A stretch of 64,000 nucleotides of DNA from Verrucomicrobiota bacterium (GTDB lineage: Bacteria > Verrucomicrobiota > Kiritimatiellia > CAIVKH01), in assembly GCA_024233345.1 (NCBI GenBank), contig JACKPT010000015.1:3386-67385 (forward strand). The letters run 5' to 3'. The translations under genes and the position numbers were made by a program. Under the pieces are notes generated by a model. It worked only from the letters and a program-made list of their open reading frames with translations, did no database searches and was not told the origin of the DNA. This document shows, one piece after another, positions 3,898 through 44,145 of this stretch. How positions within the stretch are numbered: the stretch's first letter is position 1; each line of letters begins with the position of its first letter.

Positions 3898-3992
3898 GGT
3901 ATGTTCTTTCTTCTTTTTTCGTCGCTGTGGAAATTGACCTTACCCGCTGATTCTGGTCCCATCAGCGTGATGGACAAGATGGTATTGATCCG

Positions 3993-4949: not shown

Positions 4950-4977
4950 TCCCCATCAACCCGAAAGGAGTCCGGAT

Positions 4978-5226: not shown

Positions 5227-5310
5227 GCCGATCCCGCCACTTTCTCATGGACATTTCATAGCGGGGTGGGTACGACTACGCGCTCACAACTGATGGCAGG
5301 AGTCGTACCT

Positions 5311-6843: not shown

Positions 6844-6850
6844 GGCCGGC

Positions 6851-7474: not shown

Positions 7475-7609
7475 GACGTTATCCTACACGCATCGGGGCG
7501 CAGAAAAAAGGCCGGAACGGAAAGGGATGCCGGGAAACGGGTCCGGGGTGGGCAGTGATGATGTGGAGAATCGGATTGTCCTTCCCCCGGCATCAAGGAA
7601 TAGTATCGC

Positions 7610-25050: not shown

Positions 25051-26748
25051 TTGACCGCAAACGACGAATATATTGTCGAAATCCTTGAGGGCGTTGGGCT
25101 GATTACCAGTGCGCAGGCACAGGAGGCGCTCCAGTGGGCCCAACAAAATGACAAGCCGGTGATCGATGTCCTGACCCTGCAGCAGGGAATCGAAAAATCC
25201 GACATCCTCAAAGCACTTGCCAATCAGTTTGGCATGGAGTTCATGAACTTGACCGGGGTCGATGTCGACCAGGAGATCATTGATCTGGTCCCTGCGGAAA
25301 TTGCCCGCCGGTACAAAGTGCTGCCGGTCTTTTCCGGTGACAATTCCATCACCGTGGCCATGAGTGATCCCCTCGATGTCGAGACCCTCGACTCCCTCCG
25401 GTACGTACTGCGCATGGGCGTGGAAGGGGTGGTTTCCCTGCCCGAGGAGATCGACGCGGGAATCAACCGCTATTATGGCGGTTCGGCGGTCGATCAGATG
25501 TGGGATGCGACGGAAAAGGAAGTGACCCGGGGACTCGATATTCCCAGCCTCGAAGGTGAGGATGAGGTCACGGATGCGGATGCCCCCATCATCAAGCTGG
25601 TCAGTTTGATCATTCTCGAAGCATTCCGCAGCCGGGCTTCGGACATCCATCTCGAACCCCAGGAGCGCAAGTTCCGGGTGCGCTACCGGATCGACGGTGT
25701 CCTCCACGAGGTGGAAAGCCCCCCCAAACGGCTGCAGGCCGCAGTGATCAGCCGAATCAAGATCATGGCGAATATGAGCATCGCGGAAAAACGGCTTCCC
25801 CAGGACGGACGCATCCAGATCAATGTCATGGGCCGCGACCTCGACCTGCGCGTTTCTTCGGTTCCCTCCAACCACGGGGAATCGATCGTCATGCGTATTC
25901 TCGACAAGGAAGGCCTGCAGCTCGGTCTGCCCAAACTTGGCTTCTTCTCCGATGACCAGCAAACTTTCGAGCGGATGATCGGTTTGTCCGACGGGATCCT
26001 GCTGGTGACCGGTCCCACCGGATCCGGTAAAACCACCACCCTCTACTCCTGTCTGAACTATATCAACAAGCCGGACCGCAAAATCATCACGGTCGAGGAT
26101 CCGGTTGAATACCAGATGAGTGGCATCAACCAGGTCCAGGTGCGCGCGGATATCGGAATGACCTTTGGCGCCGCTCTGCGGTCCATGCTTCGTCAGGCCC
26201 CGAACATCATCATGATCGGGGAAATCCGCGACCTGGAAACTGCGGAAATCGCGGTCAATGCCTCCCTGACCGGCCACCTTGTGTTCAGCACCCTTCACAC
26301 CAATGACGCCCCCAGCGCAGTCACCCGGTTGATCGATATCGGGGTCAAACCGTTTCTGGTCGCGTCATCGACCCGGGCGATTATGGCCCAACGGCTGGTG
26401 CGGAAAATTTGTGATAAATGCAAGGAGTCCCATAAAGCGAGCGATCGGGAACTGCGCCTGCTCGGTCCGATGGCCGAACAGTTCGCCAATGTCGAACTGG
26501 TGCGGGGCGCGGGCTGCGATGCCTGCAAGAACACGGGCTATAAAGGCCGGATCGGGTTGTTTGAAATCTTTGTCATCAACGATGAAGTCCGGCACATGAT
26601 CTTTGAGCAGTCCACCTCGGCAACCCTCCGCCGCCGGGCTCGCGAGCTGGGCATGCGCACCCTCCGCGAAGATGGCCTCCGCAAGGTCATGAGCGGGATG
26701 ACCACCCTTTCCGAAGTCTTTCGCGTCACCATGGGAGATGCCAACTGA
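25051..26748 (+). CDS. pilB: GspE/PilB-family secretion ATPase, copy 1
   Basis: Has a T2SSE_N (MshEN-like) N-domain, Walker [25 protein letters not shown], and a tetracysteine motif CDKC...CDAC. It uses a TTG start with AGGAG 7 nt upstream. Confidence 0.88.
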
Positions 26749-27841
26749 CATGACTATCAAATCGTCGGATATCAACATGATCGACCTGCTCAACCTGGTC
26801 GTGGACGAAGAGGCCTCCGACCTCCATCTCACCGTGGACAGCCCTCCGGTCATCCGCCTCAACGGGGCCATGCAGCCCATCGACACCGAACCGCTGACCC
26901 CCCAGGATACCGAGCGGTTGATGCTGGAAATCACCGACGAGGAGCACCAGGCCAAATTGCGGGAGGGCCGGGGCACCGATTTTGGATTCAGCCACGAAGA
27001 CAAGGCCCGGTTCCGGGTCAGTGCCTTCTACCAGAAACATGCCATCGGTCTGGTCCTCCGCCAGATTCCCAAGAAGCTGCTCACCCTCGAGGAGATCGGT
27101 CTGCCTCCCGCGATCAAGGAACTGCTGTATAAACCGCGCGGGCTGATCCTGGTGACCGGTCCCACCGGGTCGGGAAAAACCACCACCCTCGCCAGCATGT
27201 TGAACATCATCAATGAAACCCGGGATTGCCACGTGATCACCGTGGAAGACCCCATCGAATATTACCACCCCCACAAGAAAAGTGTGGTCACACAACGGGA
27301 AGTCGGGGTCGATGTCCCCAGTTTCAAGGAAGCGCTGCGCCGGGCCCTCCGTCAGGATCCGGATGTGATTCTCGTGGGGGAAATGCGGGATCTCGAAACG
27401 ATGGAAGCGGCGATTACCGCTGCCGAAACCGGCCACCTGGTGTTCGCCACCCTCCACACCACCGGGGCGGCCCGTACCGTGGACCGGATCGTCGATGCTT
27501 TCCCCACCAATCAGCAGGAACAAATCCGCACCCAGCTCGCATCCAGCATTGTTGCGGTGATCTCCCAGCTACTGCTGGTTCGTCAGGATAAACCGGGCCG
27601 GGTCGCGGCCTTTGAAATCATGCTCGCCACCCCGTCCATTCGGTCCCTCATCCGGGAAAATAAAACCTACCGGATCACCTCGGATATCCAGACCGGCGGC
27701 AAGTGGGGAATGGTCACCCTCGATTCCAATTTGATGCACCTGTACGAGGAAGGCAAAATCAGCTACGAGGCGCTGGTCACCAGCGCCCAGGATGTCGACA
27801 GCATCCTCCAGAAACTGCAATCGGACGCACGAAAGAAATAA
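26738..27841 (+). CDS. pilT: Type IV pilus retraction ATPase PilT
   Basis: 367 aa. Contains [37 protein letters not shown] and [11 protein letters not shown] (AIRNLIRE-like). An alternative start is ATG 26750. Confidence 0.88.
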
Positions 27842-27847
27842 CCCGCC

Positions 27848-29554
27848 ATGGCCGATCTCGAATACAAGGATCCACTGCTGCAGCAACTCTATGACGAGGA
27901 GATGCTGACTTCCGCCCAGGCGGAGGAGATTGTCGACGAACACGAGCGCACCGGTCGGTCGGTTCGTGAATTACTGGTGGACATGGATGTCCTCAGTGAG
28001 GATGCCCTGCTGGAAATTGTCGCCCAGCAACTCGGTTCGCGGGTGATCTCCCTGCATTCGGTATCCCTCCCCACGGATGTGATCCGTTCGATTCCCGCCA
28101 GTGTGGCCCGGATGTACAACGTAATCCCGGTCAGTGCGGATGCCCAATCGGTCGAACTGGCGACTTCGGAACTGCTCAGCCCGGAAGTCATTGATGAACT
28201 TCACTTTGTCCTGTCCCGCGATGTCACCTTTGTGGCTGCCCGGGAGGCGGAAATTCGGGCCGCCCTCGAGGAGAACTACGGGGATGATTCCGACTCGGTC
28301 ACCGAGATGCTGTCCGCGCTCGAATCGGAACTCGACAGTGTCGGCGAGCATATTGCTGCGGCCGGCGACAATGTCATCGAGCTGGAAAATGCCGCCAACC
28401 AGGCCCCGGTGGTCCGGTATGTCAACCTGATCCTGTACCAGGCGGTCAAGGACAAGGCCTCGGACGTTCACTTCGAGCCGTTCGAGACGGAGTTCAAAAT
28501 CCGGTACCGGGTCGATGGCGCCCTGTATGAAATGTCCCCGCCCCCCAAGCATCTGGCCCTTCCTGTAACCTCCCGCATCAAGGTGATCTCCGGATTGAAT
28601 ATCGCGGAACGGCGGCTGCCCCAGGATGGACGCATCCAGCTCCAGATCGCCGGCAAGCAGATCGATTTCCGTGTCTCCACCCTGCCCACACAATTCGGGG
28701 AAAGCGTGGTGATCCGGGTTCTTGACCGGAGTGTGGTCTCCCTCGACCTCGAAAACATCGGCATGCCCGACGATATCTACAATAATTTTGGCGAGGATAT
28801 TGCCAAACCCAATGGCATCGTGGTGGTCACCGGTCCCACCGGCTCCGGAAAAACCACCACCCTGTATTCCGCCCTGCGCCGCCTGAATACCGAGGAAAAC
28901 AAGCTTCTCACCGCCGAGGATCCGGTGGAGTATGATATTGATGGCATTGTCCAGATTCCCACCAACGAAGCCATCGGCCTGACCTTTGGCCGCACCCTTC
29001 GCGCATTCCTCCGGCAGGATCCGGACATTATCATGGTCGGGGAAATTCGCGACAAGGATACCGCGGAAATTGCCATTCAATCCTCGCTCACCGGGCATTT
29101 GGTCTTCAGTACCCTCCACACCAACGATGCTCCCGGGGCCATCACCCGCTTGATCGATATGGGGGTCGAACCCTTTCTGATCGCTTCCACCATGGAAGCG
29201 GTACTCGGCCAGCGGCTGGTGCGCACGATTTGTCCCAATTGCAAGACACCCTATGAGCCGGAAGACGATATGCTGCAAATGCTCGGGTTGAGCCGCAGTG
29301 ATGTCGGGGGGCGCCCGTTCTATTTTGGCAAGGGCTGCCTGCAGTGCAATGAGACCGGTTACAAGGGCCGCCGGGGTATCTACGAGTATCTTCGCATCAG
29401 CGACCCCATTCGCGAGCTCATCAACGAGCGCAAACCCACCATCGTGATCCGGGACAAGGCGATCGAACTGGGCATGCGCACCCTCCGCGAAGACGGTATT
29501 CGCTGCATCCTGGATGGCTCCACCACCGTCGAAGAAGTCCTGAAGTATACCTGA
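27848..29554 (+). CDS. pilB: GspE/PilB-family secretion ATPase, copy 2
   Basis: Same architecture as copy 1 (N-domain, [19 protein letters not shown]...CLQC). By eye it is about half identical to copy 1 in the catalytic region. Confidence 0.88.
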   Translation: MADLEYKDPLLQQLYDEEMLTSAQAEEIVDEHERTGRSVRELLVDMDVLSEDALLEIVAQQLGSRVISLHSVSLPTDVIRSIPASVARMYNVIPVSADAQSVELATSELLSPEVIDELHFVLSRDVTFVAAREAEIRAALEENYGDDSDSVTEMLSALESELDSVGEHIAAAGDNVIELENAANQAPVVRYVNLILYQAVKDKASDVHFEPFETEFKIRYRVDGALYEMSPPPKHLALPVTSRIKVISGLNIAERRLPQDGRIQLQIAGKQIDFRVSTLPTQFGESVVIRVLDRSVVSLDLENIGMPDDIYNNFGEDIAKPNGIVVVTGPTGSGKTTTLYSALRRLNTEENKLLTAEDPVEYDIDGIVQIPTNEAIGLTFGRTLRAFLRQDPDIIMVGEIRDKDTAEIAIQSSLTGHLVFSTLHTNDAPGAITRLIDMGVEPFLIASTMEAVLGQRLVRTICPNCKTPYEPEDDMLQMLGLSRSDVGGRPFYFGKGCLQCNETGYKGRRGIYEYLRISDPIRELINERKPTIVIRDKAIELGMRTLREDGIRCILDGSTTVEEVLKYT

Positions 29555-29627
29555 GCAAAAACTTTTATTTGCCATTGTAAACCGTTTTGATTACTGTGCG
29601 GTATCGGTTTAACGGCAGGACTTTTCC

Positions 29628-30911
29628 ATGGCGAAATATCACTTTGTAGCACTGGATTCCCGGGGTCAGGAGACCAAGGGAGAGATTGAGGCAAGCGACC
29701 AAACCTCGGCGCTATCCCGAATCCGTGAAAAAGGCCTGTTCCCAACCAACGTAACCGAAGTCACCCCCAAAGCCGCCACCACCAAAAAGTCCGGGGGCAG
29801 TAAAGGCAAGGGCAAGTCCGGGAGCAATGATCTGCTCAAAAAAGAGCTCAAGATGCCCAAGCTCTTTGTCAAGGTGAAGCCCAAGGAACTGATGGTATTC
29901 ACCCGCCAGCTCGCCACTTTGGTGGATGCCGGGCTTCCCCTGGTGCGTTGTCTGCAAGTGCTGGAACGACAGGAAAAAAATCCCCTGCTGAAGGAATCAC
30001 TCGGGACCATGGCCGAGGCGATTCAGACCGGCAGCACCTTCGCCGAATCCCTGGCCGCCCATCCCAAGCTGTTCAATAAACTATATGTCAACATGGCCAA
30101 GGCGGGTGAGGTCGGCGGGGTGCTCGATCAGGTACTGATCCGGCTCGCGGAATTCATGGAGAAGGCCCAGAAGATCAAGAACAAGGTGGTCAGTGCCATG
30201 GTCTACCCGATCGTGGTCATGTTCATGGCCGTGGGTATCCTGGTTTTCCTGATGGTGGTGATCATCCCCAAGTTCCAACAGATCTTTAACGACCTGCTCC
30301 AGGGCCAGCCTCTGCCGGGGTTGACCCAGTTCGTCATGGCGATCAGTGCGGGTATGACCGAGCACCTGCTCACCGTGATCCCGGTTATCTTCGGACTGTA
30401 TTTCGGTATCAAACTCCTCGCCAAAACCAAAAAAGGCGCGGGCATCGTGGACCGGATCAAACTGAATGTCCCCCTGTTCGGAAACCTGATCCGCAAGACG
30501 GTGATCGGCCGCTTCTGCCGCACCCTCGGCACCCTCATGTCCTCGGGCGTGCCGGTTCTCCAGGCCCTCAACATTGTCCGGGATACGTCCGGCAATGAGG
30601 TCATTGCCAAGGCGGTCAACTCCATCCATGACGCGGTCAAGGAGGGCGAAAACATGGCGCCCCCGATTGAGGCTACTGGCGTCTTCCCGCCCATGGTGGT
30701 CAGCATGGTCCAGGTCGGAGAAGAAACCGGTGAATTGCCGGAAATGCTCACCAAGATTGCCGACAACTATGACGACGAAGTCGACAACGCGGTCGCCGGC
30801 CTCACCTCGGTCATCGAACCGCTCCTCATCGTGTTCCTAGCGGTGGTCGTCGGCACCATCGTCATCGCTCTGTTCCTCCCCCTGATCTCGATCATCGGGA
30901 ACCTGAGCTAA
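29628..30911 (+). CDS. pilC: GspF/PilC-family inner-membrane platform protein
   Basis: 427 aa, with two T2SSF repeats (FTRQLATLVDAGLPL and FCRTLGTLMSSGVPV) and three TM segments. Confidence 0.88.
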   Translation: MAKYHFVALDSRGQETKGEIEASDQTSALSRIREKGLFPTNVTEVTPKAATTKKSGGSKGKGKSGSNDLLKKELKMPKLFVKVKPKELMVFTRQLATLVDAGLPLVRCLQVLERQEKNPLLKESLGTMAEAIQTGSTFAESLAAHPKLFNKLYVNMAKAGEVGGVLDQVLIRLAEFMEKAQKIKNKVVSAMVYPIVVMFMAVGILVFLMVVIIPKFQQIFNDLLQGQPLPGLTQFVMAISAGMTEHLLTVIPVIFGLYFGIKLLAKTKKGAGIVDRIKLNVPLFGNLIRKTVIGRFCRTLGTLMSSGVPVLQALNIVRDTSGNEVIAKAVNSIHDAVKEGENMAPPIEATGVFPPMVVSMVQVGEETGELPEMLTKIADNYDDEVDNAVAGLTSVIEPLLIVFLAVVVGTIVIALFLPLISIIGNLS

Positions 30912-30915
30912 ATAA

Positions 30916-31040
30916 GGTTTCAGGTTTCAGGTGTCAGGTTTCAGGTGTCAGGATATATGGTTTCCCTTGGTCGGGCAGGCAGGTGTCGGCGACGAGAAGC
31001 CTTCGTATTCCTGAAACCTGAACACTGACACCTGACACCT
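30916..31040. repeat. Inverted run of ggtttcaggtgtcagg / cctgaaacctgacacc modules (left flank of the four-helix-bundle cassette)
   Basis: 30916-30952 reads ggtttcaggtttcaggtgtcaggtttcaggtgtcagg. 31010-31040 reads cctgaaacctgaacactgacacctgacacc, an imperfect reverse complement. Confidence 0.75.
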
Positions 31041-31054
31041 TTAAATCCTGAAGT

Positions 31055-31513
31055 ATGACCGACAAAACCTGGCTTGCAGTTGAAGATCTCGAGGTCTACC
31101 AAAAGTTGTGTGCTCTCCACTTGAAGGTATGTGAACTCTCTCATCAATGGCCCGCAGAAGAACGGTATGAATTAGGCAGTCAAGTTAGGCGCTCCTCCAA
31201 TAGTTCACCCGCGCAGTTGGCTGAAAAGAATGACGATCGACACGTTCGAAATAAGATTGAAGGGGTCAATCGCGCCCGTGGTGAAGCGGCGGAAACGATT
31301 CATCACCTGTACATGGCGACATTGAAATCCTATGTTTCTCAAGAGGTATTTCATGACTACCGTGCCCGTTATCAGGAATGCATTCGGATGCTTAATGGCC
31401 TGGAGCGCACCCTCGAACGCAAACTGCCTGAAGAATCACGCCGTTGGCAGGCCAGAGAAACTAGTTCTGATTACGGAAGATCCCTGCGCGGTTGGCCAGA
31501 GAGCGCAGGATGA
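31055..31513 (+). CDS. Four-helix-bundle protein (23S rRNA intervening-sequence protein / Avd-like family)
   Basis: DLEVYQKLCALHLKVCELSHQWPAEERYELGSQVRRSSNSSPAQLAEK matches the family pattern (helix, fp..e.y.l..Q.rR...S...N.aE). 152 aa. Confidence 0.8.
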   Translation: MTDKTWLAVEDLEVYQKLCALHLKVCELSHQWPAEERYELGSQVRRSSNSSPAQLAEKNDDRHVRNKIEGVNRARGEAAETIHHLYMATLKSYVSQEVFHDYRARYQECIRMLNGLERTLERKLPEESRRWQARETSSDYGRSLRGWPESAG

Positions 31514-31514
31514 G

Positions 31515-31735
31515 GTGTCAGAGAGGTTTCAGGTTTCAGTGTTCAGGTGTCGGGGATGAGTTTTCAGGTTACAGTGTTCGGGTGTATGTTAACGATTCAC
31601 AATAGCCACCACCTGCCTGCCCGGTCAGGGATACTAGGCTACCCGTCCAGAGTAACCTCCTCTTTCCTAAAACCTGCCTGCCCGGCCAGGGAAACCCGAC
31701 ACCTGACACCTGAAACCCGACACCTGAAACCTCCT
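31515..31735. repeat. Mosaic repeat block (right flank of the four-helix-bundle cassette)
   Basis: Contains ggtgtcagagaggtttcaggtttcagtgttcaggtgtcgggg, then cctgcctgcccggtcaggg, then aacctgcctgcccggccagggaaacccgacacctgacacctgaaacccgacacctgaaacc. Confidence 0.75.
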
Positions 31736-31780
31736 CTTCCCGCCTCTGCGGGACGAAGCGGGATCACCCGTCCCGAAACC

Positions 31781-32308
31781 ATGATTCTGCTCTGCCTGCT
31801 TCTCGCCATGGCATCCATCGGGTTCGCGATCTGGGGGCAGGCCCGGAAGAACCAGCGGATTGCCCAGACCTACCATGAGCTGCGATCCATGCTGACTGCC
31901 TGTTCCCGCTATTACCGGGAATACGGGGTTTGGCCGGTGGAGGGCGAGCCGGTGGTGGGACGGGATGTCGTGGTCGGCATGGATGGAATCAATCGTTCGG
32001 TCTTTTTCCGGCTTGCTGCCCGGGAGGGGGAGGGGAATGAGGGTAACCGATACAATGCGCGCCAGATCGACTACCTGATCCCGCTCCCCGACGATCCCCG
32101 GCCCACGACCCTGACCTTCAATCGCCAGGGCGATGCCCTCGACCCTTGGGGGAATCCCTACCGTCTCTCCTTCGACGCCAACTTCGACGGCACCCTGGAA
32201 ATCCGCGGCGACTACGCCACTCGCATCCCTGGCGAAGGGGTCGCGATCTGGTCCGCCGGCCCCGATCAGCGATACGGTACCCGCCACGATATCCGGTCGT
32301 GGCGGTGA
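31781..32308 (+). CDS. GspG-like pseudopilin lacking a canonical prepilin leader
   Basis: Has an N-terminal hydrophobic helix MILLCLLLAMASIGFAIW and a C-terminal GspG-type core, DPWGNPYRLSFD...IWSAGPDQRYGT. The track ORF (from 31547) runs upstream through repeat DNA. Confidence 0.6.
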   Translation: MILLCLLLAMASIGFAIWGQARKNQRIAQTYHELRSMLTACSRYYREYGVWPVEGEPVVGRDVVVGMDGINRSVFFRLAAREGEGNEGNRYNARQIDYLIPLPDDPRPTTLTFNRQGDALDPWGNPYRLSFDANFDGTLEIRGDYATRIPGEGVAIWSAGPDQRYGTRHDIRSWR

Positions 32309-32312
32309 GGTT

Positions 32313-32597
32313 AATTTGAGATTTATGATTTAAGATTTAAGATTGAAGATTTGTGATCTGGGGATTTGAGATTGAGATTTGTGATTGGGGAAAATTCACC
32401 ACAGAGGTCATAGAGAATCACAGAGGGATAGGGTGATGGGTCACCTCGTAGCGTGGGTCTCCAGACCCGCGTATTTGTAGCCGGGCTGAACACAACCGAT
32501 TACGATTACGAGCATGATTACGCGTATAAGCCGACTGCCAGGGCCTGCCCGGCGAGGGACACCTGAAACCTAAAACCCGACACCTGCCTGCCCGGGC
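32313..32597. repeat. Composite mosaic repeat (modules A-B-C-D-E-F), including 117-bp core copy 1 (32387-32503)
   Basis: See the finding on mosaic repeats. Core copy 1 differs from copy 2 at 4 positions. Confidence 0.85.
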
Positions 32598-32770
32598 AAA
32601 GCGTGACATGCAGACGTTCGCTGGGTAGTATTTCCCTATGGAGCTAAGTAGCGTCAGTGGATTTCAGGAGGAGACAAGGCAAGATCGACAGCGCCACCGA
32701 TCAATGACCCCGGAACAGAGGCTTGATCTGGTCGAGCAATTGCGGATCCGCCATGAAAAGATGTTCGGCC

Positions 32771-33214
32771 ATGATTACCCATCCCGACTTCGAAGAGTTT
32801 TTGGCACTTCTGGCCAAACATCACGTTGAGTACATGCTGGTCGGGGGCTATGCCGTGGCATTTCATGGCTACCCCAGATTTACCAGGGATCTCGATGTTT
32901 TTTACCGGTGCACTGAGGAAAACATCACCAAACTCAGGAATTCTTTGATCGAATTTGGTTTTACCCGGAACCAGGTTCAGGAGCAGCCCTTTGAGAAGCC
33001 GGGTGAAATCATCCACTTCGGAGTGGAACCGATCCGGATCGACCTGCTCAACGAGGTGGACGGAATTACCTTTGAAGAGGCTCTCCCCCATGCCGTTCAA
33101 GGTTCATACGGACGCACCCCGGCAACCTTTATTGGTAGACGCCACCTGCTTCAAAACAAACGCGCAACCCCGAGGCTGAAAGACAAGGCCGATGTTGAGG
33201 AACTGGAGGGCTAA
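32771..33214 (+). CDS. Nucleotidyltransferase-fold protein (AbiEii/DUF6036-like), function unknown
   Basis: GGYAVAFHGYPRFTRDLDVF fits the pol-beta NTase G[GS]-x(9-13)-D-x-D pattern. The C-terminus is RRHLLQNKRATPRLKDKADVEELE. I chose ATG 32771 within track ORF 32723-33214. Confidence 0.55.
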   Translation: MITHPDFEEFLALLAKHHVEYMLVGGYAVAFHGYPRFTRDLDVFYRCTEENITKLRNSLIEFGFTRNQVQEQPFEKPGEIIHFGVEPIRIDLLNEVDGITFEEALPHAVQGSYGRTPATFIGRRHLLQNKRATPRLKDKADVEELEG

Positions 33215-33229
33215 CGTAGAAGACCGTTG

Positions 33230-33719
33230 AAGTTCACCGCGGAGGGATTGGGTGATTGAATACTGCGGATTGAAGATTGATGATTTGGGATTTGTGATTG
33301 GGGAAGATTCACCACAGAGGTCACAGAGAATCACAGAGGGATAGGGTGATGGGTCACCTCGTAGCGTGGGTCTCCAGACCCGCGTATTTGGAGTCGGGCT
33401 GAACACAACCGATTACAATTACGATTACGAGCATGAGCGCAGAGTAGGGATTTTAGATTCCAGATTGATGATTTGAGATTTGTGATTGGGGAAGATTCAC
33501 CACAGAGGACACAGAGAATCACAGAGGGATAGGGTGATGGGTAACCTCGTAGCGTGGGTCTCCAGACCCGCGTATTTGGAGTCGGGCTGAACACAACCGA
33601 TTACGATTACGAGCATGATTACGCGTAAGAGCCGACTGCCAGGGCCTGCCCGGCCAGGGACACCTGAAAACACCAAAACCCTGAAACCCGAAACCTGCCT
33701 GCCCGGCCAGGGAAACCTG
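33230..33719. repeat. Two tandem composite mosaic repeats (period 188 bp), with 117-bp core copies 2 (33300-33416) and 3 (33488-33604)
   Basis: Cores 2 and 3 differ at 2 of 117 positions (read directly from the sequence). They are followed by gccgactgccagggcctgcccggccagggacacctgaaa... modules. Confidence 0.9.
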
Positions 33720-33825
33720 GCCCCCCCGAAACCTTTTTCCACTCTTCTCTTTCCAAATAAAAGGCGTAGGTGTAGCCTTTTACCACGATTGATGTAGTAG
33801 ACATGAAACAGATGAAGGTGAGGAC

Positions 33826-34287
33826 ATGATAAACCGGGCTAGAAATGAACTTTCTTCCAGTGAACTTTCCCGGTGGCGCAGGCAGATGCAGCAGGGTTTC
33901 ACCCTGGTTGAACTGTTGGTGGTCATGTCGATCATCGGGATCCTGGTGGGTCTTACCATCGGTATCGCTGGGTTAGCTGGTCGTAAATCTGCCGATGCAC
34001 AAGCCATTGCCGAAATTCAGCGACTTTCCATGGCCCTCGATCAATATCGAGCTGAGTATGGTGCTTATCCGAATTTTGGGCCGGCACTGACAAATATGCC
34101 GAATTCTGTTTCAAACGACCTGACCAGGGCTGACGGAAAAATCAGGGCTCAGGAATTATCATTCATCGATCCCTGGGGTAACGGATACCGGTATACCTGG
34201 TCATCGAAATATCAAATCGAAATACGCTCACTCGGAGCAGATACTTCATTGGATGAGGATGATTTGATCAGCGGCCAGCAAAATTAG
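33826..34287 (+). CDS. GspG-like major pseudopilin (prepilin-type N-terminal cleavage/methylation domain)
   Basis: Contains QQGFTLVELLVVMSIIGILVGL and the GspG-type core DPWGNGYRY...SLGAD. AGGTGAGG lies upstream of the ATG. Confidence 0.8.
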   Translation: MINRARNELSSSELSRWRRQMQQGFTLVELLVVMSIIGILVGLTIGIAGLAGRKSADAQAIAEIQRLSMALDQYRAEYGAYPNFGPALTNMPNSVSNDLTRADGKIRAQELSFIDPWGNGYRYTWSSKYQIEIRSLGADTSLDEDDLISGQQN

Positions 34288-34377
34288 CCCATTTTCCGGC
34301 AAGGCCTACACAGTCCGTTTGCAACTCGGTATGATATAGACAGGTGCTGTAAAGCATTGAACATAAATAGGTAAATC

Positions 34378-35007
34378 ATGAATACTATGCTTTTGAAAAC
34401 TTGCAGGATAACGCATGAGAATCCGAGGCTCACCCCGGAAAATCATTGGTCTGACCGGATTCCAGCCGCCGCGATTCCTGCCCGGGATCGGCAGCGAGCA
34501 AGTGCAGCATTTACGCTGATTGAGCTGTTGGTGGTCATTGCGATCATTGCCATCCTTGCCGGGCTGCTGCTTCCAACCCTTTCTTCAGCATTTAAATCAG
34601 CGGATAAGTCCAAGGCAAATACCGAAGTTCGCGGACTCGAGACCGCAGTCAAACAGTATGTCAATGAGTACAGCAAGTTCCCATTGCAAACCGGGTCGGG
34701 CAGCGACACCGTCCTTACCACCGGGAATGCGGCGATCCTCGATGTTTTGCGGGGACTGAATACCACCGAAAACCCCCGCGGCATCGTTTTTCTTGAGGTA
34801 GCCGACAATGGCATGGATGCCCTGGGGAATATGGTGGATCCGTGGGGCAGTGCCTATCGCCTGGCTTTCGATACCGACTATGACAACATCGTTTCCGCAG
34901 GGGGGAGTGTGGGAGATGTTCGGGGCCGGAATGTCATTGTTTGGTCGATCGGTCAAAATGCATCTGATTCCGATGTCGAAAATTTCATCACTTCCTGGAG
35001 CGAGTGA
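34378..35007 (+). CDS. GspG-like pseudopilin paralog with a long leader
   Basis: Contains SAAFTLIELLVVIAIIAILAGLLLPTL and DPWGSAYRLAFDTDYD. The leader is about 45 aa as drawn, so the true start is uncertain. Confidence 0.75.
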   Translation: MNTMLLKTCRITHENPRLTPENHWSDRIPAAAIPARDRQRASAAFTLIELLVVIAIIAILAGLLLPTLSSAFKSADKSKANTEVRGLETAVKQYVNEYSKFPLQTGSGSDTVLTTGNAAILDVLRGLNTTENPRGIVFLEVADNGMDALGNMVDPWGSAYRLAFDTDYDNIVSAGGSVGDVRGRNVIVWSIGQNASDSDVENFITSWSE

Positions 35008-35032
35008 GTGATCTGTTGACAGGCTTTAATCG

Positions 35033-35728
35033 ATGAACGCGACCAAACAGAAGAACATGGCGGCTAGGTGGAATGGGTTCACCCTGGTAGAGCTGCTCGT
35101 GGTGATAGCCCTGATGGGTTTGTTGATCGGGTTGACGATTCCCGCGTTTCAGAGCATGGGGCGGGGGACCGCTGCCAAGTCGGCCGTCGCCCAAGTCCGC
35201 GCGGCTCTGACCCTGGCTCGTCAGCATGCGATCGTCAACGGAGAGCGGACCTATGTCGTCTTCCCCAGCCTTCCCTCCCAAGGCGAAAAATACCTTCGCA
35301 GCTTCAATATTTATGGCCAATCCAATGGCTACCTCCAGGCTTGGACATATCTGCCTGGCGGCGTGGTCTTCATCAAGGATCGATCCAGCTTTTTCAATGA
35401 GAACTTGATCGATGACGACAAGAATGTCTTTGCCAATGGGAGTCTGCTTCCAAAAATCCAGTATGCATTGCCCTTTCCCTCGAACAATAGTCCGGATGTG
35501 GTCATGCGGGTGATCGGCTTCATGCCGGATGGCAAGCCGTTTTCAGTCGATGGAAATCTGCGGGGACCGGATGCCGAACTCTACATTACGGAGGGGACGG
35601 TATCGGTAAATCCGGGCACGGGGGTGGGAACCTATGCGGTCCGCTCGAAGGAGAATTCATCCCTTTACAGCGTCTCCCTCAACCCCCTGACCGGTATGTC
35701 CAAAGTTGTCGACTACCGGGCATTTTAG
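35033..35728 (+). CDS. GspH/FimT-like minor pseudopilin
   Basis: Contains WNGFTLVELLVVIALMGLLIGLTIPAF, followed by AVAQVRAALTLARQHAI. Confidence 0.7.
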   Translation: MNATKQKNMAARWNGFTLVELLVVIALMGLLIGLTIPAFQSMGRGTAAKSAVAQVRAALTLARQHAIVNGERTYVVFPSLPSQGEKYLRSFNIYGQSNGYLQAWTYLPGGVVFIKDRSSFFNENLIDDDKNVFANGSLLPKIQYALPFPSNNSPDVVMRVIGFMPDGKPFSVDGNLRGPDAELYITEGTVSVNPGTGVGTYAVRSKENSSLYSVSLNPLTGMSKVVDYRAF

Positions 35729-36249
35729 TGATGACTATGAAGGAACAATCAGGTCGTAACGCGGGCTTTTCCCTGGTCGAAATTGCTTTGGCCCTGATGG
35801 TCACTGCGGTAGGAATGATGGGGATCATGTCCCTGATTCCTGCCTCTTTGGATCTCAACAAGCGGGCCATTGAGGATGGTCAACTCAGCCTATTTGCCGA
35901 CCAGGTGTTAAATGGCTACCGGGCTGAAGTATTGCGCAACCCCTGGGCCCAGCGCTTCAATCATACCTTGAGCCCGATGTCTCCCGAGGTCTGGATTATC
36001 AGCGCCGGCAATCCTCTTACCGTCGAACCGGAACCCGGCACTGGGCTCTCGACAAACTTTTATACCTACAAATCGGCAGGTGGCCGGTTTGTCGAGGATC
36101 TGGTGGTTCGCTACCGGTTGCGCGTTGAAAACTCGAATTTCGATCCAAATATTCTGGAATGCGAGCTCGAGGTTTGGCCGGGTCAATTTGGTTCGGAACT
36201 AAATCCGCTCACCTACTATACGGAAATCTATCGGGGGGATGGGTTGTAA
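35728..36249 (+). CDS. GspI/PilV-like minor pseudopilin
   Basis: Contains NAGFSLVEIALALMVTAVGMMGIMSLIP. Its start overlaps the preceding stop. Confidence 0.65.
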   Translation: MMTMKEQSGRNAGFSLVEIALALMVTAVGMMGIMSLIPASLDLNKRAIEDGQLSLFADQVLNGYRAEVLRNPWAQRFNHTLSPMSPEVWIISAGNPLTVEPEPGTGLSTNFYTYKSAGGRFVEDLVVRYRLRVENSNFDPNILECELEVWPGQFGSELNPLTYYTEIYRGDGL

Positions 36250-37052
36250 TGCATCGCCCCGATACACCATGCCCGTCCCGCTGGTTCCGGCAATCCCGCG
36301 AATCCTGCCAGGCGTTTACGTTAATCGAACTGTTGGCCGGGATGGCGCTGCTCCTGATTATTGTCCTCTTCTTGTCCCGGGTGTTTGCTGATACCACATC
36401 CGCATGGCAAAACAGCAATAAGCGGATGGAAGCCAACATCAGCGGCCGGACGGCTCTGGAATTTATGGCCCGGGAAATCAGCTCCGCCATCGCGGATGGC
36501 ACCCTGCATTTAAAGCTGGAGTCTGATGCGGTATCCGTCCTCGGTAAACAAGCGGACCGCCTCTATTTTCTTGCTTCAGATCAGGTCTCGCGAAAGAAAA
36601 ATTCCACCTATCGCCAAGTGAAACAGGTGGGCTTTTCCGTGGGCGCCATGACGCATCCGGTTACCGGGGCCGATATGCCGCATCGGTTTGCCATCCGGCG
36701 TACCGGGGTGGAATCTCTGGGTAGCCAGTACTATCTGGCCTATCAAAAAGATGATTGGTGGACAACCATGGATGCCATCGCCTTTACCGAGGTCATCGCC
36801 GAAAATGTCCGGGACCTCAATTTCTGGGTCTATGATGCCTCCGGCAACAGTCTTGCGAATTATGACTCCACGGTGGACGGCCCGCCCGCTTTCATTGACA
36901 TCGTGGTGGAGATGTTGAGCGAATCGGACGCGATCAAGATTGCCGCCGCCAGTAGTGCTGCGCAGCGGGAAGAACTGGCGGACCGTGCCGCACATCGATA
37001 TTTCACCCGGGTCTTTTTCAACAACTATCAAGGATATGTGATCGCACCATGA
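36249..37052 (+). CDS. GspJ/PilW-like minor pseudopilin
   Basis: Contains CQAFTLIELLAGMALLLIIVLFLSRVFADTTSAW. ATG 36249 overlaps the preceding stop (TAATG). The track ORF starts at 36159. Confidence 0.65.
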   Translation: MHRPDTPCPSRWFRQSRESCQAFTLIELLAGMALLLIIVLFLSRVFADTTSAWQNSNKRMEANISGRTALEFMAREISSAIADGTLHLKLESDAVSVLGKQADRLYFLASDQVSRKKNSTYRQVKQVGFSVGAMTHPVTGADMPHRFAIRRTGVESLGSQYYLAYQKDDWWTTMDAIAFTEVIAENVRDLNFWVYDASGNSLANYDSTVDGPPAFIDIVVEMLSESDAIKIAAASSAAQREELADRAAHRYFTRVFFNNYQGYVIAP

Positions 37053-39193
37053 GGGTTCTTCAGTCAACTGCCGCCACGGCGTATGCCGCACGTAAAACAG
37101 GGAGGGAGGGGATTGCCCTGGTCATCGTGCTTGGCATGTTGTCCCTGCTGGTCATTATCGGGGTCGGGTTCGCGATTTCCTCCCGTACCGAGCGGTTGGC
37201 CGCCAAGTCGTACGCGGACAGTGTGAGGGGTAAGCAGATGCTGCAAGCCGCCATTGCCAGAACCCTGAGCGATGTCGATGCCTACATGAACACCTTTAAT
37301 CTGATCTATCCCGATTTTGAGTTCCTTCCCAGTACGGGGGTGACCAATGCGTATGGCATGATCTCGGACGAGGCGACAAACTATTTTCCGGATTCGGCCC
37401 AGGTTTCGCTGCAATCGGAAAATCAGAAAGTGGAATGGATAGAGCTGCAAAATAATGACAACGATCTGGTCGGTCGCTATGCCTACCTCATCTACAACCA
37501 TTCCGGCATGATCGATGTCAACGCGGTCTTTCCCCATGTGGATCGCGATCAGGGGGAATCCCTGTTTGAGTTGGATGTGAATCAACTACCGGAGTTCGGA
37601 GGGAATGCCTCTCAATTCAGTGATAATATGTCCGCGAGTTGGACCCGGTTTGAATCCTTCCCAGAACTAAATGTCATCGCGATAAATAGCGGTATGGTCC
37701 AGAAAGCCGAGAATCTGTTCATCTATTCCCGATTTCCTCCGGACCGCAACGCGATCGATGGGGGGTATGCGGATAAGATTGATCTGGCCGGCGATACAAC
37801 CACATTGGAGGGACGGCAGACCGAAATCGTGCAGGGCTTTACGGATTGCAATATTCCTAATCCGGATATCGTCTTTTTGAATCTGCTGGATTATGTGGAT
37901 GATGATTTTATCCCACAGGATTTGAATACGTTTTGCACCGAACCGGTTCCCATGATCAATGAGATGTGGGTGACCAGCCGGATTGTGAAAGCGAACAGTA
38001 CCACGCCTGGCTTCTACACCTATACGCACACCATTTCCCTGAACGTTGAACTATGGCATCCGTTCCCCTCTACGGTAGACGCTGAAGCACCCGATCTACC
38101 CGATGTTGAATTTGCGATTGCAGGTGGCACGCCCCTGCCCATCGCCAATTTCCTGACGCCATTACTTCCACCACTTGGGGCTTCTCCTGGTACAGTCGCC
38201 GGAAATACCATCAATGCCGATGGGGACAACTTTTACATTGTGACTTACACCTGGGAGCTTTCAAACGATTCCACCATCAATGTTCCGCCGACTGCGATTA
38301 TCACCTATAATGTCCAGCTGGGTCCCTATGAAATCACCGTGGATGGACAACCAGCCGACCGGGTCGAGACTTTTCCAGTCGTCCAACTTCAGTTTCCAAT
38401 CAATGGGCAATACAGCGATCCCCGGGGTGTGGCCTGTGTGGATCCACGATTGAACTATGACCCGCTGCAATGGAGTATGCTTGCCGGTAGTTCTATCACG
38501 CCGGGCGCGATCAATAGCCTGTCGACCGGGGGGGAGGGCGTCAGTTCCATGTATGTCCGCAACCAACCCCTGGATAACAACAACCCCCCGGGACAAGTCG
38601 GCGAGCTTGGTTTCCTGTCCGTAGGTGAGCCCTGGCGCACGATTGCCCTTTACGAGACTCCGGTGTCCGGGGTGAATCCGGTGATCGACTATTTCCGAAT
38701 TGGAAATGCAGGGGGGACTGTGAGGGGCAAAATTAATCCCAACACACCTCTGGAAGATGTGCTCTCATGTGCTTTTTTCGCCGCGCCGATCGAGACATCC
38801 CCTGGCGCGGGCGGTCCAACCCTGATCTGGGACAAGGCCAATGATTGGGCCAGTGCCATCATCGATAAGGTGTGGAGTGGGGCCAGTGTGATACCGGTTA
38901 CCAATCTTTCGGAAATAGGCCGCTTTGACCAAAATACCTTCAAGGGCCTGGTGGGTGATCCAAACGCCACCGATGCGGAAATCGAATCCATCATCCGAAC
39001 CTCCTACCCTTTTCTCGGACTGCGGCAGAACCTGTTCACCGCGGTGATTGCGGCTCAGGTCTTCAGCGAAAGCGGCGAACCAATCAGTGAGAACAAGGCG
39101 CTGGTGGTCTTTTGGCGTGATCCGGTTGCCGATCCCAACGACCCGAATCACCACCCTGCGCTTGTTCGGTTCTTCAAGGGACTGGTGGAGTAA
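37049..39193 (+). CDS. Large GspK/PilX-like pseudopilin-associated protein (714 aa)
   Basis: Has the N-terminal anchor REGIALVIVLGMLSLLVIIGVGFAISS (the GspK-type G-x-A-L-x-x-V-L pattern). Its start overlaps the preceding gene, and the extracellular part is large. Confidence 0.6.
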   Translation: MRVLQSTAATAYAARKTGREGIALVIVLGMLSLLVIIGVGFAISSRTERLAAKSYADSVRGKQMLQAAIARTLSDVDAYMNTFNLIYPDFEFLPSTGVTNAYGMISDEATNYFPDSAQVSLQSENQKVEWIELQNNDNDLVGRYAYLIYNHSGMIDVNAVFPHVDRDQGESLFELDVNQLPEFGGNASQFSDNMSASWTRFESFPELNVIAINSGMVQKAENLFIYSRFPPDRNAIDGGYADKIDLAGDTTTLEGRQTEIVQGFTDCNIPNPDIVFLNLLDYVDDDFIPQDLNTFCTEPVPMINEMWVTSRIVKANSTTPGFYTYTHTISLNVELWHPFPSTVDAEAPDLPDVEFAIAGGTPLPIANFLTPLLPPLGASPGTVAGNTINADGDNFYIVTYTWELSNDSTINVPPTAIITYNVQLGPYEITVDGQPADRVETFPVVQLQFPINGQYSDPRGVACVDPRLNYDPLQWSMLAGSSITPGAINSLSTGGEGVSSMYVRNQPLDNNNPPGQVGELGFLSVGEPWRTIALYETPVSGVNPVIDYFRIGNAGGTVRGKINPNTPLEDVLSCAFFAAPIETSPGAGGPTLIWDKANDWASAIIDKVWSGASVIPVTNLSEIGRFDQNTFKGLVGDPNATDAEIESIIRTSYPFLGLRQNLFTAVIAAQVFSESGEPISENKALVVFWRDPVADPNDPNHHPALVRFFKGLVE

Positions 39194-39707: not shown

Positions 39708-42700
39708 CTACGGTGCGGTCAGGCGGATGCTATAGATTGGGTTCGTGACTCCAGTCGGGAAATTGAACCAGACTTGATTGGTGCCGCCGGTCCATTGTTC
39801 ATTGAAGGGGGTGACCATGGTCCAGGCCACCGGATTGGCCATCAGGTTCGTGGTTATCATCGGCTGCACGGTCCAGTTGTCGGGATTGCCCACCACCGTG
39901 AACTGCACATTGGTCTTCATGATCAACGCGGTGATGTACGCTTCAGGCACGATTAGATCGCCAAAGATCTGGCCCATGTTGACCGCACCGGGCGTGGAGA
40001 AGACTATGTTCGTATCAAATGCCCAGGCAAAATCATCCCGGTTGGTGCCGGTACCGATCAGAGCGACACCGTTGGTACCTGCTGGTTCGATGTCAATCTT
40101 GCTGACCAGTTCAAATCCACTGGCCACGCCTCCGAACATAATGCTGTCTTCGACGCCTCCGACTTCATTGAGCAGTTGAATCCCGGTTGGAATGTCCCAG
40201 AGTAGATTGGTGAACATTTGATCAGAGGCATCGGGCAATAATTCGTTCCCGAGAACCCAGAAACCATATCCACCGCTTTCATTCAACAAGGTTGTGTTGT
40301 TGGTGATCGTATAGCGGGATATCAGGGTGATTTCGTGATAAATCGCAATGGACCAATCTGAAAGGTCAAAGCCGGCAATCCCTGCCAATTCAATGAAGGC
40401 AGGGGTAAATGCAAATCCCCAACTATTGAAAGCATCATTATAATCCACCTCATTGATCCAGACCTGACCTGGTTCCGAACGCGGGATCCCGTAGGAACCG
40501 GGGACGCCGGGGGCTGTGTCCGGATAGTAGGCGGGGGAGTTGAGTTCACTTCCGGGACCGGAGAATTCTACCTTGAAGTAGTACTGCACGATGGTACCGG
40601 CGGGTTGAGCCGGAATATTCGTCGCGGACCGATAGGTGATGTAGCCGGTATTGGTCATCGCGAGGGTGGTAAATCCGCCGCTGGTTCCGATTCGGTAGTA
40701 CGCGGTCACGTTGGTCGTTTCCGCGCCGTTGGCGGGTAAGACGATGGCATCGAGGTAGACGGCATCATTGGTAAAGGGGGCCGGGGGATCGATTTCCGCA
40801 TTGATCACCACATCCGCCGGAGGCTTGGGGGTATCAATGAGAATGTTGTCGAAAAGGACACGCCCGCCTCCATTTTTGTACAACCGGACATATACCCCAT
40901 TGGTGATGAAATTATATTTCGAGTAGTACAAATATCCACTATCATTGGTAATCGATAGCGTATCGATTGATGTCCAGGAAGATCCATTAATCGATGTCTG
41001 TATCTCGACTGCTGCGGTGTTATTCGTGTCGGTAGACCATAGCTTGTATTGGAACGAGATATTTCCTGCGCCATCTGGGAATAAGTGCGATTGTATAATG
41101 GACTGTGTGTTGCGGTTCATCCGCCCAACTTGTCCCTCGTATCCTTCCTCTGGGTCTACAATGACCTCCTGAACCGACCAACCCTCCCATTCATCGGTTC
41201 CTGAGGTGTAGGAGCCTTTGCGCGGCCAGGTTTCAAAGTTCTGGTTTCGGTAGGCCACTGGTTTGCTGATGCTGAAATCGTCGATCAATAGTTCCTGGGG
41301 ACCGGTTTCTCCGGTCGCAACCCCGACAATATAGACATCATCGAAGGCCAGGTTTCCTGAAACTTTGGTATAGGTAAACCGGATCTGGATGACATTGGTG
41401 GAAAGGGAGTAGGAGGGGCTGGACTCGGTATTGCTCAGCGAGGTGAGGTTGACCAGGGTGGTCCACAGGCTGCCGTCGGTGGTGGTTTCAATGAGGAATG
41501 AAGAACCGGAAATCCCATTGCCCTTCATCCAGAAGGTCAGGTTGGTTGGATGATTCAAAACCGGGGTGGTGATCGTATCGCCTGTGGTATCGAATTTCAC
41601 TGAGTTGGGAGACTCCCCGGAGCTGGAATCGCTGGTATATTCACCAACCCCATCAAAGAGCCAGCCGCCAGGGGCTTCACTACCTTCGGTAAATGGTTCC
41701 TGGATCAGGACATTGTCTATCGCTCCGGCATCGATCTGCTGGTTGACAATGCGAATATAGCGGGGGTTGGGTTCGTAAAAGAACTGATTATATTGGATGT
41801 AGGAACCACTGATGATCGGCTCAATCACTGCTAGGTCCGTCCAGGTATTGCTGCCATCGGGCGATTCCTGCAGCCGCAGCGATGCGGGTCCATAGCCATT
41901 GGTGCCCCTGGCGTACTGGAAGGAGATGGTCCCATATCCGTCACTGTAGTAGGGGGAGCGGAGTTGCCAGGTAAAGACATTGGTGGGAACGAGTGGATCA
42001 CCAATGACCCCGGAGGTTCCACTGTAGGCTTCATTGGTGGTGATGCGTCCGAGACTGAGCAGCCAGTCATTGATGGTGATGATGGTGTCTGATGTATTGG
42101 TCCATCCCGCTCCTTCGAAATCCTGCAACCGTGGATCATCGGTGGCATCCGCGAGCTGAATGTCATCGATGAGGAGGTTGTTGGTGCCGGATAAATGATC
42201 GACGCGTACATAGCGAACATCAGGGTCGGCAAGGTACAGAGAGTAGGACTGATAACTTTGGGCGACAATGTTGGATACCGTGCCTTTGGTGGTCCAAGAA
42301 CTGCCGTTGGGCGAAGTCTGGACGCGGAAGGTGATGGGCTCGAGGTTGTCCTCCGGATCTGTGGTGTTTTCATGCCGGTAGAAAAAATTGACCCGGCCCA
42401 CCCCGGAGGTGGTAAGCGGGGAAACAATCTGGCCCCCCTGGGGTAGACTCGCGGCCAGCCCGGTGCGGGCTTCATCGGTGACTGATCCCGTGGTCATCAA
42501 CCAGCCTGCATAGCTGTATCGCCCGGGAGTAAAGGCGAATGGCCAACTGAAGGATTGAGCCATGGGGGGAATCTCCCGGATCGATACATCATCGAACTGT
42601 AGGGAACCAAGATCGCCCGCCCCGCTGACACTGATTACGGAACGCGCGTACATGGTGCCCTCTGGGGCCTCTCCGATGACCTTGAACTCCGTCCAGTCAC

Positions 42701-43544: not shown

Positions 43545-44145
43545 TGGGGGATTGGTTGATTAAAGATTTGAGATTTGAGATTGAAGATTGGTGAATTGAG
43601 ATTGGGGAATGGTGAGTCGGGGGAAGGTTCACCACAAAGGACACAGAGAGCGCAGAGTAATTGGGGGTTGGATGATTGAAGAATGAAGATTGATGATTTG
43701 AGATTGGGGATTGGGGGTTAGGGACCTGGCCCTGAAGGGGCCGAAGTCGATAGCCCATGGCAGAGCCATGGGGGAGGACGATCCCCCAAACAAATTTGTG
43801 CTGAAGGCACGACATTCGGGTCCTGAAACCTGCCTGCCCGTCCAGGGCCTGCCCGGCCAGGGCCTGCCCGGCCAGGGACACCTACCACAGAGGACACAGA
43901 GAAACACAGAGGGAGATTGGGTGATTGGTAAACTCGTAGCGTGGGTCTCCAGACCCGCGTATCGGGAGCAGAACTGAACGCAACCGATTACGATTACGAT
44001 TAGGATTACGAGTAGGAGGAGGGTTACCCCCCCCCAATCTCTCTCTCTGCGCTCTCTGTGGTGGGTGCCCCTGGCCGTGCAGGCCCTGACCGGAAAGTCG
44101 GCTCATACTTCATAATCGTAATCCTAATCGTAATCGTAATCGAAA
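43545..44145. repeat. Largest mosaic repeat block, including an inverted REP-like unit (43722-43815), a 15-mer x3 tandem (about 43831-43876) and a 25-bp perfect inverted repeat
   Basis: Modules A, B, C, D and E are all present, several in both orientations. Details are in the findings. Confidence 0.85.

Follow-up and report, generated by a model that had tools for sequence, protein, structure and literature searches.

What kind of filament is built by a locus that joins the retraction ATPase of type IV pili to pilins resembling those of type II secretion systems (T2SS)? The question is raised by a gene cluster in a 64-kb stretch of DNA (hereafter the window: contig JACKPT010000015.1, positions 3,386-67,385 of the forward strand) from a member of the Kiritimatiellia found in activated sludge and wastewater. 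At positions 25051-30911 on the forward strand (window coordinates are used throughout, and L numbers denote loci or contigs of relatives) the closely packed genes pilB1, pilT, pilB2 and pilC are found, followed up to position 39193 by seven pilin-like genes, here named G1, G2, G3, H, I, J and K (Table 1). A preliminary description of the window had proposed a pilB-pilT-pilB'-pilC block with three GspG-like genes and an H/I/J/K-like set, and Pfam and NCBIfam profiles together with pilin motifs bear out these genes and their positions. The locus is real, conserved over the Kiritimatiellia, Lentisphaerae and Verrucomicrobia and apparently undescribed, and is best regarded as a variant, found in the Planctomycetes-Verrucomicrobia-Chlamydiae (PVC) group, of the type IV filament (T4F) superfamily. 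We consider it probable that it encodes a distinct PVC filament system, in which motors like those of type IVa pili (T4aP) are combined with GspG-like pilins, the secretin is probably encoded elsewhere, and a large lectin-like partner protein is tied to the filament.

Two extension ATPases and one retraction ATPase

Orthologues of PilC with 57-78% identity are present in 80 species-level genomes, and among the 66 loci whose upstream DNA is long enough, 53 carry pilB1-pilT-pilB2-pilC in this order. These 53 loci span three PVC classes, namely the Kiritimatiellia, metagenome-assembled genomes (MAGs) labelled as Lentisphaerae, and the Verrucomicrobia (Limisphaera, Chthoniobacter, and Opitutia), which shows that the order of the motor block is conserved across these classes. 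The pilT gene overlaps pilB1 by 11 bp and sits between both pilB genes, and its product has the AIRNLIRE-type motif as well as the Walker A and Walker B motifs. On the NCBIfam models, PilB1 scores 650.7 bits for PilB (TIGR02538, cut-off 675.65) and 632.7 bits for GspE (TIGR02533, cut-off 630.25), and PilB2 606.8 and 633.6 bits, respectively. In sequence searches of the PDB the best matches of both are T4aP PilBs, for PilB1 those of Geobacter and Myxococcus. PilC scores 402.8 bits on the PilC-Myxo model, which is under the cut-off, and 399 bits on the GspF model (cut-off 424).

The two diverged ATPases beside pilT, already pointed out in the preliminary description, are both conserved and have intact motifs. 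PilB1 and PilB2 are 51% identical over 386 columns, while orthologues are about 71% identical. In a neighbor-joining tree with bootstrap, built on these 386 ATPase-domain columns, PilB1 and PilB2 form separate clades with 100% support each, both containing Kiritimatiellia as well as Verrucomicrobia members; the GspE sequences of Lentisphaerota, E. coli, and Vibrio fall outside of both clades. Judged from these alignments, the PilB duplication is old and both copies are under selection. The Walker A, Asp box, Walker B, His box, and Cys4 motifs are kept in PilB1 and in PilB2, and both extension ATPases apparently are catalytically intact. The two can be told apart by a clade-specific signature: just before the Walker B sequence GEIRD, the otherwise invariant DPD is replaced by [AS]PN in all 17 PilB1 orthologues examined (APN in the window), whereas PilB2 and every reference sequence have DPD. 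The Asp box reads EEP instead of EDP in many Kiritimatiellia PilB2 proteins. Binding of cyclic di-GMP (c-di-GMP) by the PilB N-termini is not claimed, since the scores of the motif model (17 and 20.7 bits) stay below its cut-off of 38. A GGDEF diguanylate cyclase gene that lies divergently 5' of pilB1 in one compact form of the locus (L146, 848-1453, minus strand) hints at c-di-GMP control.

Pilins, the enlarged K protein and a lectin-like neighbor

G1, G2, and G3 all contain a GspG-type DPWGxxY core, and the Pfam T2SSG family is reached by G2 only. On the GspG model TIGR01710 (cut-off 88.85) G2 and G3 score 63.2 and 44.1 bits, compared to 143 bits for a bona fide verrucomicrobial GspG. Mature G2 and G3 are cysteine-free, have an acidic tail in addition to the DPWG core, and lack a T4aP-type C-terminal disulfide region. 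Class III signals (G/A|F[TS]L[IV]E) are found on G2 (G|FTLVE), G3, H, I, and J. H scores 40 bits on TIGR01708 and I 26.9 bits on the PilV model, both below the cut-off; the starts of I (35737) and J (36249) were taken from gene calls in same-species MAGs (L082 for I).

G1 constantly accompanies pilC and lies directly 3' of it in 16 loci. Its signal in orthologues follows the pattern x-[ST]-[RK]-[PSA]-E with glycine at position -1 in only about half of them, and a 77%-identical relative begins MNHGPMIPNHRAG|ITRPE. Within one species, three different sequences precede the G|ITRPE site of G1 (window 31514-31781; L142 1120-1450; L144). The reading frame is open in all three, which suggests that the leader is hypervariable or that the start lies elsewhere than at the ATG at 31781 chosen by gene callers. 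No database record of the 253-aa G1 product was found.

K had been described as a GspK-like giant minor pilin. This holds for its operon position and its first 30 residues, which have the Glu5-less start GIALVIVLG characteristic of GspK and PilX and which hhalign aligns to residues 3-32 of E. coli GspK only (probability 46%), but not for its globular part, which has no match in Pfam, PDB-sequence, or Foldseek searches. As a GspK homologue K was rejected, because the PDB sequence search was empty, Foldseek gave nothing at E ≤ 1e-3, and hhalign covered these N-terminal residues only; the top Foldseek hits, GABA receptors, are meaningless here. All 58 homologues of K are annotated as "hypothetical" and none has a Pfam match. 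The AlphaFold2 (AF2) model of K (mean predicted local distance difference test, pLDDT, of 85) begins with an N-terminal helix of 64 residues, continues with alpha/beta domains, and has a conserved C-terminal strand. Pilins of the PilK family require a final beta-strand, which is given in cis by the GspK of T2SS and in trans by PilY1, PilC, and probably MshQ (Ellison et al., 2026, PMC13533445).

The preliminary description had the locus directly followed by three large secreted proteins, to which the filament was thought to be dedicated. The three are present, but the first of them, big1253, is encoded on the minus strand and convergent with K, and it is the only one that is linked to the locus in relatives. 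In a scan centered on big1253, at least 17 loci have an orthologue next to the pilin genes. It shares their strand and lies close to them in six (L113, L114, L117, L119, L122, and L128), is divergent from them in L116, and is convergent with them in the window and in at least eight further loci. The C-terminal ~750 residues of big1253 are colinear with those of its orthologues. The protein has weak F5/8-type-C and NedA matches and no similarity to any NCBIfam family, and the AF2 model of its C-terminal 751 aa (pLDDT 84) shows a chain of jelly-roll domains that match reelin repeats, CBM22, CBM4, and the carbohydrate-binding modules (CBMs) of glycosidases. The second large protein, a 3876-aa S8 subtilase (47916-59546), is syntenic only in L118, and the third, an 807-aa WD40/TSP3 protein, has no synteny in the locus of any relative. 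The L118 subtilase (3-8195) is 42% identical to that of the window over 2546 residues. An unrelated 1274-aa S8 protease is encoded near K in L146 (13367-17191), and very large S8 subtilases occur near the K end in three genomes.

Table 1. Genes and inserted elements of the filament locus (window coordinates).
Feature	Position	Strand	Characteristics
pilB1, extension ATPase paralogue 1	25051-26748	+	565 aa; T2SSE 469 bits and MshEN
pilT, retraction ATPase	26738-27841	+	367 aa; TIGR01420 463.5 bits (cut-off 319.1)
pilB2, extension ATPase paralogue 2	27848-29554	+	568 aa; T2SSE 448 bits and MshEN
pilC, inner-membrane platform	29628-30911	+	427 aa; T2SSF, two repeats
Cassette 1 (outside the machine): hairpin, 23S-rRNA-IVP gene (31055-31513), hairpin	30915-31733	+	PF05635 81.6 bits
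G1, GspG-like pilin	~31748-32308	+	DPWGNPY core; WSxGPD tail; non-canonical G|ITRPE signal
Cassette 2 (outside the machine): 197-nt direct repeats around AbiEii/MNT-like nucleotidyltransferase gene (32723-33214)	32372-33709	+	
G2, GspG-like pilin, candidate major subunit	33826-34287	+	153 aa; PF08334 T2SSG 43 bits and N_methyl
G3, larger GspG-like pilin	34378-35007	+	209 aa; N_methyl; A|FTLIE signal; DPWGSAY core
H, GspH/FimU-like minor pilin	35033-35728	+	231 aa; N_methyl; weak PF12019 GspH
I, GspI/PilV-like minor pilin	35737-36249	+	170 aa as called in MAGs; N_methyl
J, GspJ/PilW-like minor pilin	36249-37052	+	267 aa; N_methyl
K, enlarged tip pilin in GspK/PilX position	37049-39193	+	714 aa; GIALVIVLG N-terminus, without Glu5
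big1253, secreted multi-jelly-roll (CBM-like) protein	39708-43469	-	1253 aa; signal peptide

Scattered parts of the machinery

A secretin, PilMNOP, GspCLM, and a prepilin peptidase had been reported missing from the window. Pfam searches of its large open reading frames (ORFs) confirm this, as does phmmer with E. coli GspC/D/L/M/O and HofM/N/O/P/Q, which gave no match among all six-frame ORFs of at least 60 aa in the window. A Peptidase_A24 domain was found neither in the window nor in the PVC loci fetched; as five of the pilins carry canonical G/A|FTLxE signals, a prepilin peptidase is presumably encoded elsewhere. A scan of the window and 80 loci with a secretin motif (as regular expression) and phmmer yielded only two matches, both in PilC-centered loci and both belonging to other systems. 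The secretin gene directly 5' of pilB1 in L060 was rejected as a partner, being the last gene of a complete and separate T2SS operon with the order gspE-F-G-H-I-J-K, PilM (Amuc_1101)-like, GspC-like, gspD, whose GspG (143 bits) lies above the cut-off; such a T2SS adjoins the filament locus on this contig only. That of L064 was likewise rejected, as it is part of a separate gspD-gspE-gspF operon.

A search with a GspD of Lentisphaerota revealed annotated GspD proteins in Kiritimatiellia MAGs, the only secretin type seen in those relatives. In MAG JAQUPZ, contig 2 (L109) carries a three-gene gspD-gspE-gspF operon after fabZ-lpxA, and contig 7 (L062) carries the pilC-pilins-K-big1253 locus. The GspF encoded in the gspD-gspE-gspF operon of Lentisphaerota is only 23-25% identical to PilC of the window. 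Since GspD is encoded in separate operons in Kiritimatiellia MAGs including JAQUPZ, and in T2SS operons in Verrucomicrobia, a secretin encoded elsewhere is the rule among relatives, and the scattered gene organization would explain why none is found here. From these genome comparisons, the gene for the outer-membrane pore most likely lies at another place in the genome, and the lack of a secretin within 64 kb is no sign of a secretin-less machine: one and the same MAG (JAQUPZ) holds both the locus and gspD in a separate operon.

The same gene arrangement could be read in another way, with all of these components forming a single modified T2SS. G2 to K would then be the pseudopilins of gspD-gspE-gspF, with PilB1, PilT, PilB2, and PilC as extra motors, and the system would secrete glycan-binding and protease cargo such as big1253. 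It would fit this that the Kiritimatiellia gspD-gspE-gspF operons have no adjoining pilin genes, that the pilins of the locus are GspG-like and cysteine-free, that a Sec-dependent large CBM-like protein is encoded alongside, and that large S8 subtilases recur near the locus (window, L118, and L146). However, Verrucomicrobia with the pilB1-pilT-pilB2-pilC-pilin operon also hold a complete T2SS with its own GspG to GspK, and the two pilin sets are therefore separate in these bacteria. Classical T2SS have no retraction ATPase, and many other prepilin-like genes in PVC genomes could serve GspE and GspF. We regard a single T2SS as unlikely.

The locus recurs in three contexts. In the first (type A), gatCAB is followed by pilB1-pilT-pilB2-pilC-G1, and the remaining pilin genes are adjacent or on another contig. 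In Verrucomicrobia (type B), pilB1-pilT-pilB2-pilC is followed by a BrnT/CopG toxin-antitoxin pair, G-G-H-I-J, and the gene for a protein of 850-1315 aa. In Victivallales (type C), pilC-G-G-G-H-I-K follows a ribosomal operon. In the closest relatives L002, L004, and L005, pilC-G1 alone stands directly after gatAB, which indicates that the system is a conserved unit with freely shuffled blocks; in several genomes the pilin-big1253 block lies on another contig than pilB1-pilT-pilB2-pilC. It might be asked whether pilB1-pilT-pilB2-pilC-G1 and G2-K-big1253 are just two unrelated modules that became neighbors by chance in the window genome, as the two lie on different contigs or scaffolds in many Kiritimatiellia (L006-L011 vs. 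L113 and L114; L001 vs. L116; L004 vs. L127) and in the window have 1.5 kb with repeats and a selfish gene between them. This is quite improbable, because ATPases and platform would be useless without pilins and the juxtaposition recurs independently: pilC is linked to pilin genes in the window, in L012, L018, L021, and L146 among the Kiritimatiellia, and in the type B and type C loci. Hardly more probable is a competence pilus as in Thermus or Vibrio, with a short retractile GspG/ComGC-like fiber and a PilT that pulls DNA through a secretin, for PilT does occur together with pseudopilin-like pilins that have weak ComGC/D/E/F-type matches, and the location among housekeeping genes is consistent with a core function, but these ComG matches are confined to the pilin N-terminus shared by all such proteins, comEA, comEC, and dprA are found neither in the window nor in the loci examined, and the conserved partner resembles a lectin rather than a DNA-binding protein.

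The pilus genes had been presented as one stretch; they all are there, but not as an unbroken operon, since two cassettes are inserted between pilC and G2. In cassette 1, a 23S-rRNA-IVP gene for an Avd-like four-helix-bundle protein lies between two long hairpins made up of GGTKTCA heptad arrays, which form inverted repeats (12 pattern matches vs. 0 expected). Cassette 1 is missing from the same-species contigs L142 and L143, which have 99.6% identical flanks and a different spacer of ~170 bp in its place. Its presence in the window strain and absence there suggest a small mobile or selfish element. Cassette 2 contains a nucleotidyltransferase gene with weak PF08843 and PF10706 matches and 197-nt repeats at 32372-32568, 33285-33481, and 33473-33669, with a partial copy near 43884-44018; the copies are 75-95% identical, each is followed by a heptad/CCTGCCTGCCCGG motif, and the repeat family has no Rfam match. 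In the close relative L003, G1 and G2 are adjacent. Two other Kiritimatiellia show the same association: their pilin-big1253 clusters contain or adjoin genes for homologues of the nucleotidyltransferase (63 and 42% identical; L127 6931-7410 and L130 3313-3738). The BrnT-toxin/CopG-antitoxin-like pair of Verrucomicrobia is kept between pilC and the first pilin gene, ~200-1100 bp after pilC (L053, L060, L068, L070, L074, L077, and L078), at the same junction as the selfish insertions of the window.

The rest of the window contains, by Pfam searches of its large ORFs, only housekeeping genes (among them murG, murC, ddl, tsaD, an S41 peptidase gene, glgC, and thrC), transposases, and large secreted proteins. 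The window has no Rfam match, and a scan for promoters and terminators gave no signal above that of shuffled sequences. While pilB1 is preceded by gatCAB in most Kiritimatiellia relatives, it is here preceded by the S41 peptidase and tsaD genes, and an IS200-like Y1 transposase (19662-20132, minus strand) and a DDE_Tnp_1 transposase (20258-22120, plus strand) are encoded 3-5 kb 5' of it, which together suggests a rearrangement. Two tandem FGE-sulfatase (formylglycine-generating-enzyme-like) genes at 820-2778 fit a lifestyle on sulfated polysaccharides, and an ORF resembling FHA/YscD cytoplasmic domains (63532-64000) is cut by the window end.

Relation to known filaments and a possible mode of action

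The mixed make-up of type IV pilus and T2SS parts noted earlier is upheld: PilT and PilB-type motors in T4aP order are combined with GspG-like, cysteine-free pilins. The order pilB-pilT-pilC is that of T4aP loci in Myxococcus, Geobacter, and cyanobacteria. Like T4aP, the locus encodes a bona fide PilT, PilBs whose closest solved structures are T4aP PilBs, a four-member minor-pilin set with a last member without Glu5, as in fimU-pilVWXY1E of Pseudomonas, and beside it a non-pilin protein of ~1,200 aa, as is PilY1 (PMC13533445). It differs from T4aP in the second PilB gene between pilT and pilC, in GspG-like pilins without a C-terminal disulfide, in the absence of pilMNOPQ nearby, in a partner that is a string of jelly rolls instead of a PilY1 propeller, and in PilB and PilC scores that miss the equivalog cut-offs. 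With the T2SS it shares the GspG-type core (T2SSG in G2), the H/I/J/K-like order, and two ATPases just above the GspE cut-off. Unlike in a T2SS, PilT belongs to the operon, the searches gave no GspC, GspL, or GspM, and the equivalog cut-offs of GspF and GspG are missed; K has double the size of GspK and can be aligned to it at the N-terminus only, and Verrucomicrobia hold a complete separate T2SS besides. Neither the T4aP nor the T2SS definition fits the locus in full.

Other systems come close in single traits. The PVC-specific Verru_Chthon cassette (TIGR02596, TIGR02598, TIGR02599, and TIGR02600; D, B, C, and A) comprises three prepilin-type proteins and a very large one. H, I, J, and K match these four weakly and in this order, each with its best or nearly best score, and the 850-1315-aa protein stands in the K position of the verrucomicrobial orthologous loci. 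However, the scores lie far below the cut-offs (H 32.1 vs. 70, I 30.1 vs. 51.4, J 34.8 vs. 256.5, and K 24.9 vs. 332.3 bits) and cover N-terminal segments only, and K has 714 aa against ~1300. In the mannose-sensitive hemagglutinin (MSH) pilus (mshDOPQ), too, a large lectin-like non-pilin protein (MshQ, ~1200 aa) is encoded immediately after PilI/J/K homologues (Ellison et al., 2026, PMC13533445), the locus is without its own prepilin peptidase (PMC6668835), and the ATPase has an MshEN-type N-terminal domain, but here the c-di-GMP motif model is missed, no mshIJKLMN equivalents were found, and big1253 is without NCBIfam similarity. The chlamydial or reduced T2SS of PVC bacteria has GspD, E, F, and G only; the gspD-gspE-gspF operon of Kiritimatiellia is comparably minimal, whereas in the window locus a full set of minor pilins is joined by PilT and two PilBs. 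In PVC bacteria there is precedent for T4F systems with few and chimeric components, which standard models class as "generic" (PMC6668835). The preliminary description could not match the architecture to a described system, and no paper describing it was found in the literature searched.

In the distinct PVC filament system that we favor, the anciently duplicated and apparently active extension ATPases PilB1 and PilB2 would dock on the PilC platform, possibly with a division of labor, and polymerize GspG-like subunits (G2, the candidate major pilin, G3, and perhaps G1) into a fiber primed by a tip complex that consists of H, I, J, and the enlarged, Glu5-less K. The fiber would be depolymerized by PilT and thus be dynamic. 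The genes for the prepilin peptidase, for any alignment proteins, and for the channel in the outer membrane would lie elsewhere, the channel most likely being the GspD secretin of a separate gspD-gspE-gspF operon as in Kiritimatiellia relatives. Given its synteny, big1253 may be functionally tied to the pilins, either as a tip- or fiber-associated glycan-binding adhesin, in a position like that of PilY1 and MshQ, or as a dedicated cargo.

Several points weigh against this interpretation. The PilB tree is firm on the separate clades but not on their position within the superfamily, as the sister grouping of PilB1 and PilB2 has 69% bootstrap support and the node that joins them to the T4aP PilBs of Geobacter and Myxococcus only 28%. 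The globular part of K is without detectable similarity to GspK. In the monomer model the last beta-strand of big1253 is packed inside its own terminal beta-sandwich and not free, and there is no PilY1 propeller; a role of big1253 as PilY1-type strand donor is neither proven nor excluded by this model. In none of ~150 loci is a secretin, PilM/N/O, GspC/L/M, or prepilin peptidase tied to the system, and the sharing of a secretin is only an assumption, because that of Verrucomicrobia belongs to a complete T2SS with its own GspG to GspK, PilM-like, and GspC-like proteins. Expression data and RNA runs were looked for and none were found.

Going one step further, the filament might be a PVC-specific retractile "glycan-fishing" pilus, a GspG-like fiber with K and big1253 at the tip, which is extended by two motors and retracted by PilT, so that polysaccharide is captured for degradation or uptake. 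We put this forward as a speculative and doubtful idea; if true, type IV filaments would gain a functional class not described before. In sludge, sediments, oceans, and guts, the Kiritimatiellia, Lentisphaerae, and Verrucomicrobia are major degraders of polysaccharides, and their surface machines have hardly been studied. The locus presents a conserved T4F variant of these bacteria that is marked by a PilB duplication with clade-specific signatures, a pilC-coupled G|ITRPE pilin, a tip pilin of 700-1300 aa, and a syntenic lectin-like partner. The presence of PilT beside GspG-like pilins blurs the boundary between T2SS and T4aP, and the locus offers material for two questions, namely how a single platform is shared by two extension motors and in what way filament tips become linked to large non-pilin proteins.

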